NCBI GenBank assembly: GCA_964106915.2
Contig: OZ066915.1
Length of the DNA: 64,000 nucleotides
Strand: one strand, 5' to 3'
Source of the DNA: Podarcis gaigeae
Lineage: Eukaryota
Shown: positions 5,777 to 63,568 of the stretch, in pieces
How the letters are laid out: each line of letters opens with the position of its first letter
Position numbering within the stretch: the first letter of the stretch is position 1
Notes under the pieces: model-generated
Seen by the model: only the letters and a program-made list of their open reading frames with translations
Database searches by the model: none
What the model was told of the DNA's origin: nothing
Made by a program: the position numbers and the translations under genes

Positions 5777-6361
5777 CTTTCTCAAAAACTAATTGTGCTC
5801 AAAAATAGCTGCAGCTGCTGCACTTACTCATATTCATACTATGCATTTAACAGCTGCACAGTGACAATACAATTCAAGAGAATGACACCTGCCATAAAGA
5901 TAGTCACAATAAAATCAAAAGAGCCAAGGATTTGGAGGAATGAGGCAAAAAAGGAAGAGGAAGTAGTAGAAGGAGTTCCAATTTGTGGATTGATTTCTGC
6001 TACTACATTGGCTGATGGATCTAGTTGTTTGGTCCTTAAGCTGACTTGGATTTATGCTTAAGCCCTTGTGTCCAAATTGCGAAATAAAAATGGAACTGTC
6101 ATCTGAAATATTTGATGTTTTTTGAAATCTGGGATTTAACTTGACAGCTCAACGCTTTCCCTTTAAATTACATTGATACCACACTTCCGATATGAAAGCC
6201 AGCAGCGATGTCACACTTGTCACTGTGATTTATGGGTCAAGTGTTCAAGTTAGACAGAGACATCTTTTCCCAGAATAAACACATGTACTTAATAACGCAA
6301 GATACCTCTTGCTCATAGGGACCGGAGGCTGTCCTGTGCTCTGGACACGAGTGATACCCAC

Positions 6362-6472
6362 CTCTCTTTCTCTTTCCATATTGTGTACCACTTAAGTAAT
6401 CTTTTGGTACTCGGGAGTTTGGGATGCAAGCAGTACTGGTGGCCACCTCGGAATCGGGATTTCATTGTGACT
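6362..6472 (-). CDS. CXCL14: CXCL14 coding exon 3 ([37 protein letters not shown], 111 bp)
   Basis: Acceptor tgtctttcctttcag, donor AG|GTGGGT. CLHPKL.STKR..KWY..W.EK matches human CXCL14. Phase 2 in and phase 2 out. Confidence 0.97.
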
Positions 6473-7268: not shown

Positions 7269-7404
7269 AGAATTGTACAGTTGGAAGGGACCACAAGGAT
7301 CATCTAGTCCAACCCTCTTCAATGGAGGAATCTTTTTGCACAACATGGGACTCACACCCATGACTCTGAGATTAAGAGTCTCATGCTCTACCAACTGAGC
7401 TATC
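7269..7404 (-). mobile_element. tRNA-Lys(CTT)-derived SINE with CR1-type 3' tail
   Basis: Reverse complement gatagctcagttggtagagcatgagactcttaatctcag.. matches tRNA-Lys(CTT), followed by ggttggactagatgatcc..cccttccaact tail. Confidence 0.8.
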
Positions 7405-13766: not shown

Positions 13767-14032
13767 TCATTACATTTATGGGCATTTTAATATTACCCTC
13801 ATAAGCCTTGTCTTCTTTTCTAGCAATTTACAATTAAGCAGATTTACTATATCAGAGACAGATGGAACATTTTCATAACAGTTACCAATTGTGCTGGGTT
13901 TAACATGTTACCATACTGTCATAGGCATTTTCTCCCTCTTTAAAACATTAAAAAGGCAGAAAAACAATCTGATTGATACAAACATATTTATTTTGATAGT
14001 GCCCTTAAAAAAAAAAAAAAGGTGTGACTTAC

Positions 14033-14138
14033 ATGATCATTCTTTCCTTGCAATATGGATACTTTGGCTTCTCTTCCAGCTTTTGTATATCACTGAATCT
14101 TATCTTGGGGCCCTTTCTTGCGCATCTGCATTTTGATC
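14033..14138 (-). CDS. CXCL14: CXCL14 coding exon 2 ([36 protein letters not shown], 106 bp)
   Basis: Acceptor ttttcttctag, donor GTAAGT. CXC motif and KGPKIR..KLE.KPKYP.C match human [29 protein letters not shown]. Phase is consistent with exon 1. Not present in the ORF track; read by hand. Confidence 0.97.
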
Positions 14139-15250: not shown

Positions 15251-15314
15251 CTTCCACGCTGGTAAAGCAGATTACAATGAACAGTAAGAGGAAAACTGCT
15301 GTCAAGAGCTTCAT
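15251..15314 (-). CDS. CXCL14: CXCL14 coding exon 1 (signal peptide MKLLTAVFLLLFIVICFTSVE-G, 64 bp, ends phase 1)
   Basis: ATG in atcATGa context. Hydrophobic signal peptide resembles vertebrate CXCL14 (human MRLLAAALLLLLLALYTARVDG). Followed by donor G|GTAAGT (plus-strand ACTTAC at 15245-15250). No upstream ATG seen in 15315-15540. Confidence 0.96.
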
Positions 15315-35106: not shown

Positions 35107-35250
35107 ATAGAATCACAGAATTGTAGAGTTGAAAAGAACTATGAGGGTAATCTAGTCCAACCCTCTGCATTGCATCTTCCGCCCAATGTGGGGCTCAAAC
35201 CCACAACCCTGAGATTAAGAGTCTCATGCTCTTTCAAGTGAGCCATCCCA
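35107..35250 (-). mobile_element. tRNA-Lys-derived SINE with CR1-type tail
   Basis: atagaatcacagaattgtagagttg..tctagtccaaccc..gtggggctcaaacccacaaccctgagattaagagtctcatgctct. Confidence 0.8.
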
Positions 35251-47070: not shown

Positions 47071-47330
47071 AGACCATAGGTTGGTGGAAAGAGTCTGATA
47101 TTGCCAGTAGAGTTCAGTGCTCACCAATGCATATTTATGGGTCTAAGAGAATTTAAAAAAGCCTACCAAGCAGAGCCAGTCTTTGCATAAACAATCTGCC
47201 CTAGAACCAGGGGAATAAAAGACAGACTAAAGCACATCTGACAAGGTGTTAGCAACACTGCATAATGCACTGCTCACATACACTAGGGGAGATGGCAAAA
47301 GAACCAGTATACCTTACATAACTGTGTATA

Positions 47331-47459
47331 GTTACAGATAGGTAGCCGTGTTGGTCTGCCATAGTCAAAACAAAAAAAATCCTTCCAGTAGCACCTTAAA
47401 GACCAACTAAGTTAGTTCTTGGTATGAGCTTTCGTGTGCATGCACACTTCTTCAGATAC
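47331..47459 (-). mobile_element. Penelope-like element terminal (pLTR) fragment, copy 1
   Basis: ggtagccgtgttggtctg..gtagcaccttaaagaccaac..gagctttcgtg..cacttcttcagatac is typical of reptile PLE termini. 9-bp TSD CTGTGTATA (47322-47330 / 47460-47468). Second copy at 63368. Confidence 0.85.
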
Positions 47460-47460
47460 C
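47421..47460 (-). ncRNA. Minimal type-I hammerhead ribozyme motif (putative)
   Basis: GGUAU-CUGAAGA-A-GUGUGCAUGCACAC-GAA-AGCU-C-AUACC: conserved core, palindromic stem II, palindromic AGCU at stem III, and 5-bp stem I (one base contributed by the flank). Confidence 0.7.
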
Positions 47461-48695
47461 TGTGTATATATTCAGATGTTATTGAAATGTAAGCTTCTTT
47501 CATGTGAATCAGTTGTCGGGCAACAACACCTGTCATCCCCAGCCATGTGGACAGAACTGGTGAAAGTTGGAGTCCAAAAATGCAACTGATGTGCCAGAGG
47601 TTCACAATGCCCAATTTATATTCTCTTGATAGTAAGACAGAAGTCTACCTACATGCAAGGTTACCTGCCAGAGCAATGGTTTTTAATGGCTGCTGAATGT
47701 GTATCAGTTGCCATGAACTTCCCTAAGAAAGCCAAATTTTATGTAACTCGCCCTTTGCAAAACTCTCCCTAGCTGACAGGTTCTGTGGCGTTAATGCTCA
47801 GACCAACCTGAAGCAGAGGGTCAGGCTAAAGTGGTCTAAAGCAGTTGAACTGACAGGGAGCAAGTGGAACTGGACAGTCAGAGCAACATTTCTTCATTCC
47901 CAGTGAAAATTTGTGCTGTGTTTTTGCTGTTACTAATCCCTCAAGTTAAATTCTGGCCACCATGCTAAAAAGGTCTGGTTTTTTAGGGACAGGAAAGATC
48001 TGCTGATTCCTTCTTTCCCTCCCTCCCTCCCTCCCTCCTTCCTTCCTTCCTTCCTTCCTTCTCCAGAAACAGACCAGAGGTCAGTGTGCTTCTCTTCTGG
48101 ATTTGAAGCATTTTGTATGAACCATGACTGGCAATGAGACGAATGGAGTATGTGAAGACCTTACCAGGGGGAAAAAATTAAGCAGTAAATTATTATTTTT
48201 AAAAAGCAACAATCAATAATACACAGCAAAATTTTTGGAGTAGCTATTCTTATTTGCAGGTTGAGAAGGAATTCTACTGAAAATTAAAGTCAGCTGAAAA
48301 GAAAATTACTAGCAGTTGCTAGGATGTATGGAGAAAACATTTGCATAGATGGGGTTTGAAAGTGTTTCAGGAACAGTTAACAAGCTTTATCTCACCAGCA
48401 CTGAGGCACCCAGCTAACAATGGCTCAAGATCATTTATAGGTTGTGTTGCCACTTTGATTTCTGGCATGGCTGATGTGCCTTTGACAGTTGTGTGACAGG
48501 CAGCACTTTCAGTGGGGCAGGCTTTACCCAGCATGTGAAAACAACCTTCTGTGCACCCACTCACCTCAAATAGGGAATCTGTGGACCTCTGGATATTGTT
48601 GGACTAAATTTCCCATCATCCCAGAACATTGTCCAGTCTGCTTAGGGCTGATGGGAGGTGGAGTTCAACCAACACATGGAGGGGTTCAATGAGTA

Positions 48696-63199: not shown

Positions 63200-63568
63200 G
63201 CAATTACAATTATTATTTTATACCTCTCCTATCTGACTGGGTTTCTCCAGCCACTCTGGGCAGCTTACAGCACATATAAAAACATAATAAAATATCAAAC
63301 ATTAAAAATTTCCTGATACAGAGCTGCCTTCAGATGTCTTCTAAAAGCTGTGCAGTTCTTTATCTCTTTACAGATAGGTAGCCGTGTTGGTCTGCCATAG
63401 TCAAAACAAAAAAAATTCCTTCCAGTAGCACCTTAAAGACCAACTAAGTTAGTTCTTGGTATGAGCTTTCGTGTGCATGCACACTTCTTCAGATAGTTGG
63501 TCTTTATCTCTTTGACATCTGAAGGGAGTGTGTTCCACAGGAAGGGCACCACTACCGAGAAGGCCCTA
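63200..63568 (-). mobile_element. L2 3'-end fragment hosting the second Penelope insertion
   Basis: ccagccactctgggcagcttacag..gctgccttcagatgtcttctaaa..gttccacagg..accactaccgagaaggccct (antisense RAFSVV..LWN). Confidence 0.7.
63368..63505 (-). mobile_element. Penelope-like element terminal fragment, copy 2, with hammerhead motif (63458-63495) and short inverted piece
   Basis: Differs from 47332-47458 by one T indel. Followed by GTTGGTCTTTA (inverse of internal TAAAGACCAAC). Flanked by duplicated CTTTATCTCTTT. Confidence 0.85.

Follow-up and report, generated by a model that had tools for sequence, protein, structure and literature searches.

Introduction

Endonuclease-bearing (EN+) Penelope-like elements (PLEs) leave truncated insertions, described in PMC8557442 and PMC3846280, and turtle and snakes are among the animals in which minimal hammerhead ribozymes of PLEs have been reported, most of them scattered as single motifs (PMC4209133). 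The pseudo-LTR (pLTR) of the rotifer element A. vaga Pen2a carries a TATA/initiator-like pair (PMC3846280), and the promoter of D. virilis Penelope is described as internal and TATA-less (PMC2377424). A zinc-finger-like motif between the reverse transcriptase (RT) and endonuclease (EN) domains is common to Neptune and Nematis (PMC8557442). For the anole element Poseidon PAc, the tail lies between two internal RT start sites and uncleaved RNA is used; the 5' ends of the short products are not discussed in the main text of that report (PMC11167929). Our literature search, which covered titles and the beginnings of abstracts and had Repbase, Dfam and subscription papers outside its scope, returned no account of a fixed 5' edge in short PLE copies. 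Here we describe a short, hammerhead-bearing insert and the family of copies to which it belongs.

Results

A hammerhead-bearing insert in the window

The window, that is, the whole 64-kb stretch of Podarcis gaigeae DNA that was analysed, carries on its minus strand a 129-bp insert flanked by the 9-bp target-site duplication CTGTGTATA (Table 1). An earlier note on this DNA, made from the letters alone, had reported both the length and the duplication correctly; its span of 47331..47460 took in one duplicated base, the true end being 47459. Throughout the text, +1 denotes position 47459, the G that opens stem I of the hammerhead, the base just before it is position 0, and -1 is two bases before +1.

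Table 1. Coordinates of features in the window, with the basis of each assignment.
Feature	Position	Strand	Basis or remark
Leader-only Penelope-like copy, 129 bp: 5' UTR and first 10 codons ("tail")	47331..47459	-	Sequence identity to parent and other loci
Target-site duplication, 9 bp, element 3' side	47322..47330	.	First base also matches the element's next base
Target-site duplication, element 5' side	47460..47468	.	Innermost base is G on the minus strand, the commonest base before +1
Minimal type-I hammerhead, predicted cut 47426/47425	47422..47459	-	Motif, fold, descriptor, hallmarks of PMC4209133
Stem I, 5' strand GUAU	47459-47456	-	Seen in sequence
Hammerhead core CUGAAGA	47455-47449	-	Seen in sequence
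Unpaired A after CUGAAGA	47448	-	Seen in sequence
14-nt palindrome (stem II)	47447-47434	-	Seen in sequence
GAAA	47433-47430	-	Seen in sequence
GCUC, then predicted cut between 47426 and 47425; stem III is a loopless palindrome	47429-47426	-	Seen in sequence
Stem I, 3' strand AUAC	47425-47422	-	Seen in sequence
8-bp inverted pair, arms 47400-47407 and 47350-47357, around T-tract and start codon	47350..47407	-	Fold not above shuffles
Inner 3' boundary (about +88 to +99), the starting point of inverted partner copies	47361..47372	-	Partner starts in sampled copies
Tail: start codon at 47362 and first 10 ORF codons; its end is the outer 3' boundary	47331..47362	-	Parent comparison, copy 3' ends
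Second leader-only copy	63368..63495	-	Starts at +2; 13-bp duplication; 5-nt filler matching the element itself; inside another repeat
CXCL14-like gene: signal-peptide exon from 15314; IL8-domain exons 14032-14136 and 6361-6471	15314-6361	-	

The hammerhead core, stem I and the palindromic stem II that the note had named are all present on the minus strand. The motif has the core, a base separating positions 9 and 10.1, G10.1 paired with C11.1, and a palindromic 15.2-16.2, all hallmarks of PLE minimal hammerheads; the extra A after the core, which the note had considered non-canonical, is a conserved trait of these ribozymes according to PMC4209133. A minimal-hammerhead descriptor had a single match in the 64-kb window; 50 shuffles, a control of a crude dinucleotide-block type, gave none. 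The note had also proposed a check with hammerhead covariance models, and an Rfam search of the insert gave no hammerhead, neither at the gathering score nor at E up to 10. A phage collection gave no match. When compared with shuffles, the fold of the 45-nt motif had a z-score of -2.5, the whole 130 nt -0.5, and the 3' 90 nt with the second hairpin -0.4; the second inverted pair named in the note is present, and its hairpin is thus predicted to be no more stable than chance. Among 230 descriptor matches, 201 were identical and no compensatory stem variants were seen, the family being too young for covariation.

In a rough folding model, two molecules pair through the 14-nt palindrome at -37.2 kcal/mol, against -17.7 for a hand-drawn double hammerhead and -10.1 for one monomer. 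This predicted preference for the palindrome duplex is in keeping with PMC4209133 and PMC11167929, where activity was low or depended on help from protein. The dimer requirement that the note had mentioned agrees with the same two reports, in which a lone minimal hammerhead was inactive as a monomer (PMC4209133) or inactive without protein (PMC11167929). Cutting of host RNA by a lone copy is unlikely; the hammerhead would need a partner or the element's protein.

The parent element and the size of the family

The insert matches many other loci identically over 127-130 nt, and it shares 97.7% identity over 130 nt with the end module of a longer element in the same genome, locus L244. This parent consists, in order, of an upstream pLTR, the leader, a 910-aa open reading frame (ORF), a 3' UTR and a second leader ending at +98. 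A single ORF encodes the RT (RVT_1, E 9.5e-12) and, at its C-terminus, a GIY-YIG domain (E 7.8e-6), and the pLTR is formed by a partial tandem covering the ORF start, as expected of an EN+ PLE. The parent start codon lies at +98, so that the insert corresponds to the 5' UTR and about ten codons, and longer copies continue upstream into a GIY-YIG ORF. A zinc-finger-like CxxxxCxxC at residue 770 of 910, between RT and EN, points to an element of the Neptune or Nematis type. The assignment in the earlier note to a Penelope-type element with a minimal type-I hammerhead was borne out.

An exact whole-genome count of the intact leader start (+1..+26) gave 10,979 segments, with forward and inverted halves counted separately. 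The 26-mer from the 3' end of the insert had 7,964 matches genome-wide, against 185 for a pattern that extends just past the tail into the ORF start. Based on these sequence comparisons, we read the insert as the leader of a young endonuclease-bearing PLE and not as a separate mini-element. The window copy itself is of the one-sided simple form, stands single and has no TATA-like box, which lies outside the short unit; it is probably transcriptionally silent.

Two 3' boundaries and target duplications

We examined the first 90 loci among 100 listed 3'-end matches, chosen by their 3' end only; two copies inside a neighbour's locus were left out. Forward segments end at +125..+131 in 79/90, and an inverted segment adjoins the 5' end in 68/90, most of these starting at +88..+99. 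The sample thus shows the inverted 5' copy and the optional 30-40-bp tail of EN+ PLEs, the 30-40 nt between the two 3' boundaries being the PLE "tail" by position. The inner boundary is likely one start site of reverse transcription and the outer boundary a second. Target duplications were mostly of 12-13 bp (43/90), and none was detected in 8/90. The second copy in the window lies in the same apparent part of one other repeat as six further copies (L002, L011, L073, L079, L115 and L197), a region that may be a preferred target.

A sharp 5' edge that is not the cut site

In the 90-copy sample, the density of 5' ends was 6.4 per 100 nt between -12 and +4 and 0.2-1.0 elsewhere, a peak too sharp for random truncation. 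Whole-genome exact counts gave the same picture. Of the 10,979 segments, 3,131 are broken right before +1 and 2,341 right before -1, about half of all leader segments breaking at just these two positions, and 3,250 keep ten upstream bases. The position of the earlier note, that the boundaries are non-random and the copies are not random truncations of a PLE, holds in these 5'-end counts. Ordinary truncation occurs too, since 34/90 forward segments end inside the leader and 21/90 run further upstream.

The insert starts 34 nt before the predicted cut site, where only 160 segments carry a changed base, compared with 72 one base upstream. Set against 3,131 and 2,341, this small number argues that the copies are not cleavage products. 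Thirty of the cut-site cases were inspected and comprised 18 true breaks and 12 point changes. Breaks at the cut site somewhat exceed those at the neighbouring position, and cut RNA may on rare occasions serve as template.

Inverted partners stop together

Thirty-one pairs in which both halves reach +4 or beyond were informative: 19 were edge/edge, 11 long/long and one, a borderline case, mixed. In a further 36 pairs one half ends inside the leader, which makes them uninformative, and one pair with its inverted match in the ORF was dropped. The +46 allele was common to both partners in 49/51. As the partners stop together, the edge belongs to the template, and there are two template classes, one ending at the edge and one continuing upstream.

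This concordance bears on the possibility that the RT, or the processing of ends in repair, halts on long templates when it comes to the edge of stem I, the short copies then being structure-biased truncations of the 3' pLTR. The edge does coincide with the start of stem I, a place where fillers and fold-back joints often occur. If the halves stalled independently, however, about 14.5 of the 31 pairs should be mixed, and only one was observed. An RT encounters a template hairpin from the hairpin's 3' side and would be expected to halt there, not after unwinding it. Stalling also leaves the excess of G at the edge, described below, unexplained, and we regard it as quite unlikely. We also rejected a fold-back model, which has the first cDNA serve as template for the inverted half: inverted halves often reach further upstream than their partners (e.g., -1131 vs -47), yet mostly lack the tail.

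At four loci (L056, L057, L064 and L183), the junctions of inverted halves carry short repeated patches from the first 10-25 nt of the leader, and in sequence they look like repeated abortive re-priming at a template end.

Probable run-off at the 5' end of the mRNA

A TATA box commonly lies about 30 nt from the transcription start. Among 82 long segments, 62 have a TATA-like box whose first base is exactly 30 nt from an initiator-like A downstream at -2, and 20 are without a match. The base before +1 is G in 72/100 of the first listed breaks. A long variant lacking the base at position 0, which would supply this G, had 0 matches, and the G is therefore not a subfamily trait; a guessed promoter-variant pattern had no match either. 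Untemplated G is a mark of cap copying in L1 and SVA (PMC4859970). Of 21 G cases inspected, six were also explained by the joined partner, four showed a single extra base and 11 fell in neither class. From the TATA spacing and the G excess, we infer a transcription start at the edge. The base before the -1 edge was T in 77/100 and G in 11/100 of the listed breaks, contrary to what cap copying predicts. The internal, TATA-less promoter of D. virilis Penelope (PMC2377424) also speaks against the inferred start.

We consider it probable that the insert is a dead-end copy of the leader. In this reading the template was an RNA that had not been cut and was probably capped; the RT began within its leader and continued until the 5' end was reached. 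Transcription from a TATA/initiator promoter, located in the upstream pLTR, would start the mRNA at an inferred point 0-2 nt before stem I, and the leader would therefore sit at both ends of the mRNA. The RT-GIY-YIG protein would make a staggered target cut and prime at about +130, with a second priming at about +95 on the other target end often giving the inverted partner. Priming in the 3' leader copy would yield the longer, 5'-truncated inserts, and priming in the 5' leader copy would stop at the cap after about 130 nt. What the copies themselves display directly is identity with the end module of the parent, two fixed 3' boundaries, a shared sharp 5' edge and almost no starts at the cut site.

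Alternatively, the edge could be an RNA processing site. Stem I might, for instance, begin at a 3' splice site whose first exon is very short or has been lost; in D. virilis Penelope, the end of the intron has been mapped to where helix I begins on its 5' side (PMC4209133). Long copies have a pyrimidine tract ending in CAG just before position 0, a sequence that would also make a good 3' splice site, and a cap does not account for the T before -1. Splicing predicts a junction at position 0, however, where 9/114 ends fall, against 17 at +1 and 15 at -1; the short copies have no common upstream sequence beyond 1-2 nt, no such splice joint occurs among the joints listed for four RNA runs, and the TATA spacing suits a start of transcription at the edge. 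We therefore consider RNA processing an unlikely origin of the edge.

In the four RNA runs of a related organism, about 6-12% of each being searched, molecule starts did not accumulate at either the edge or the cut site; these are ordinary libraries, dominated by read-through of genomic copies. A search across sequencing runs listed no RNA run containing the sequence, which says nothing about expression. In one run of a related organism, reads over the ORF were strand-biased, consistent with sense transcription.

Arrays and extensions into the ORF start

We inspected 46 loci with 54 extensions into the ORF start. Thirty-eight extensions end at +176..+191, 10 at +157..+175 and 6 later, the search pattern itself demanding a reach to about +157, and a new leader edge follows in 43/54. 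Eight loci (L188, L195, L199 and L291-L295) have two extensions each, whose end positions are the same in four, 1-2 nt apart in three and 18 apart in one; most lie in arrays with a period of about 160-190 nt, the junctions being near-equal within a locus and different between loci. The ends suggest that the RT leaves the 5' end of the RNA and lands in a narrow zone past the tail, about 50-60 nt beyond the outer start site, a distance that resembles the minimal 3' boundary on the RNA for the anole protein. The repeated junctions may reflect repeated jumps on one RNA, a circle, or later duplication of the DNA. At L296 (G000:C1, about 9791980-9792340), an array of four head-to-tail 75-nt units, each with a complete hammerhead and joined at about +74 to -1, stands behind an inverted partner and is a candidate natural substrate for cleavage as a dimer in cis.

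Retroviral minus-strand strong-stop DNA arises by priming inside the RNA, near its 5' end, and run-off across the terminal repeat. As a tentative extension of the run-off reading, priming in the 5' leader could be the normal first step of replication: a target-attached "strong-stop" copy of the leader would be made and would then jump, a homologous jump to the 3' leader giving long copies with a rebuilt promoter, and failure giving the majority of about 130-bp stubs. The protein would here hold the RNA just past the tail, which would account for the 43/54 new leader edges and the 38/54 ends at +176..+191. If this extension is true, the mRNA opens with the ribozyme, and cleavage there would take off the cap. 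The likeness to retroviral strong-stop DNA is an analogy only; here the copy is target-primed and integrated, with no tRNA primer and no integrase.

The arrays also raise the proposal of the earlier note that the copies may form a non-autonomous, retrozyme-like family; such a family would be copied from short or circular RNAs of tandem unit arrays. Tandem units with complete hammerheads do exist at a few loci (the 75-nt units at L296, the longer-period arrays elsewhere), and these fit the operational retrozyme definition of bioRxiv 10.64898/2026.07.22.740005. In addition, an RNA joint that links the ORF start back to the leader edge, a step of 193 nt (L244:5642-5834), was supported by 7 and 12 reads in two runs (X21 and X22) of one study; it could be a circle or a transcribed genomic tandem. 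The array junctions, however, lie at the leader edge and not at the cut site and differ between loci, and the 185 copies with the ORF-start extension are few against the 7,964 with the 3' end. The family's ends are likewise placed at the leader edge and not by the ribozyme cut. No allele was private to the short copies at the two sites tested; at +46, short copies had 42 A/55 G and long copies 41 A/33 G (p = 0.13), so the unit shows no lineage of its own at these sites, and the TATA-like box lies outside it. The window copy is solitary and contains no tandem unit. The insert is instead a module from the end of an autonomous element that this genome also carries; the proposal finds no support, and an independent retrozyme-like family is very unlikely.

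The insert and CXCL14

The earlier note had suggested that the insert could cleave a CXCL14-sense upstream transcript. The copy and the CXCL14-like gene are indeed on the same strand. The insert lies 32 kb upstream of the start codon at 15314, though, and is identical to many dispersed copies; lone minimal hammerheads were inactive as monomers in PMC4209133 and without protein in PMC11167929. The suggestion thus finds no support, and selection of this copy to regulate CXCL14 by cutting an upstream transcript is highly improbable. The flanks of the insert had next to no coverage in one RNA run. We also looked for an empty site in DNA contigs: those of one run enter the insert from both flanks, whereas the listed contigs of another, a run of a related organism, end at the flanks. 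None of the pieces listed reaches across the whole site. Elsewhere in the window, Rfam gave two partial tRNA matches (7345-7402 and 35188-35245, minus strand), which are probably the heads of a tRNA-derived SINE.

Discussion

The single copy described here is ordinary; the family is young and abundant, and its junctions record how Penelope-like elements insert. The counts indicate that the template is RNA that has not been cut and that an inverted insertion draws both of its halves from a single class of template, and they place the hammerhead at the probable 5' end of the mRNA. The family-wide edge, the concordance of partners and the jump zone offer clues to the PLE cycle that can be tested, by mapping of caps or in vitro with a natural ORF that is intact.

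Compared with the non-LTR retrozymes (PMC7229834; bioRxiv 10.64898/2026.07.22.740005), the copies are likewise short, non-coding, hammerhead-bearing and PLE-related, and a few loci are tandem. The window copy differs from the retrozymes as described there in being a monomer with a target duplication, in its minimal and not canonical hammerhead, and in ends that do not lie at the cut site. The hammerhead resembles those of PLEs in PMC4209133: helix I is short, helix II is long and has G10.1-C11.1, a base is unpaired between 9 and 10.1, 15.2-16.2 is palindromic, and loop 3 is missing; in contrast to the hammerheads reported there, stem II is fully palindromic here and is predicted to favour an intermolecular duplex. 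Anole Poseidon PAc, as assayed in vitro in PMC11167929, shares the two internal RT starts bounding the tail, the extension of both target strands and the use of uncleaved RNA. It belongs to another clade, and its start codon lies inside the ribozyme, whereas here it lies 64 nt after the cut site.

The insert, a leader-only copy, belongs to an already known kind of PLE. Like the EN+ elements of PMC8557442 and PMC3846280, its family has an ORF with RT and C-terminal GIY-YIG, a pLTR with the first codons, an inverted partner (68/90 here), an optional 30-40-bp tail and target duplications, and its pLTR has TATA and initiator-like motifs as in A. vaga Pen2a (PMC3846280). The truncated insertions of PMC8557442 and PMC3846280 are described as cut short at the 5' end without a fixed edge, whereas about half of the segments here stop at two edge positions.
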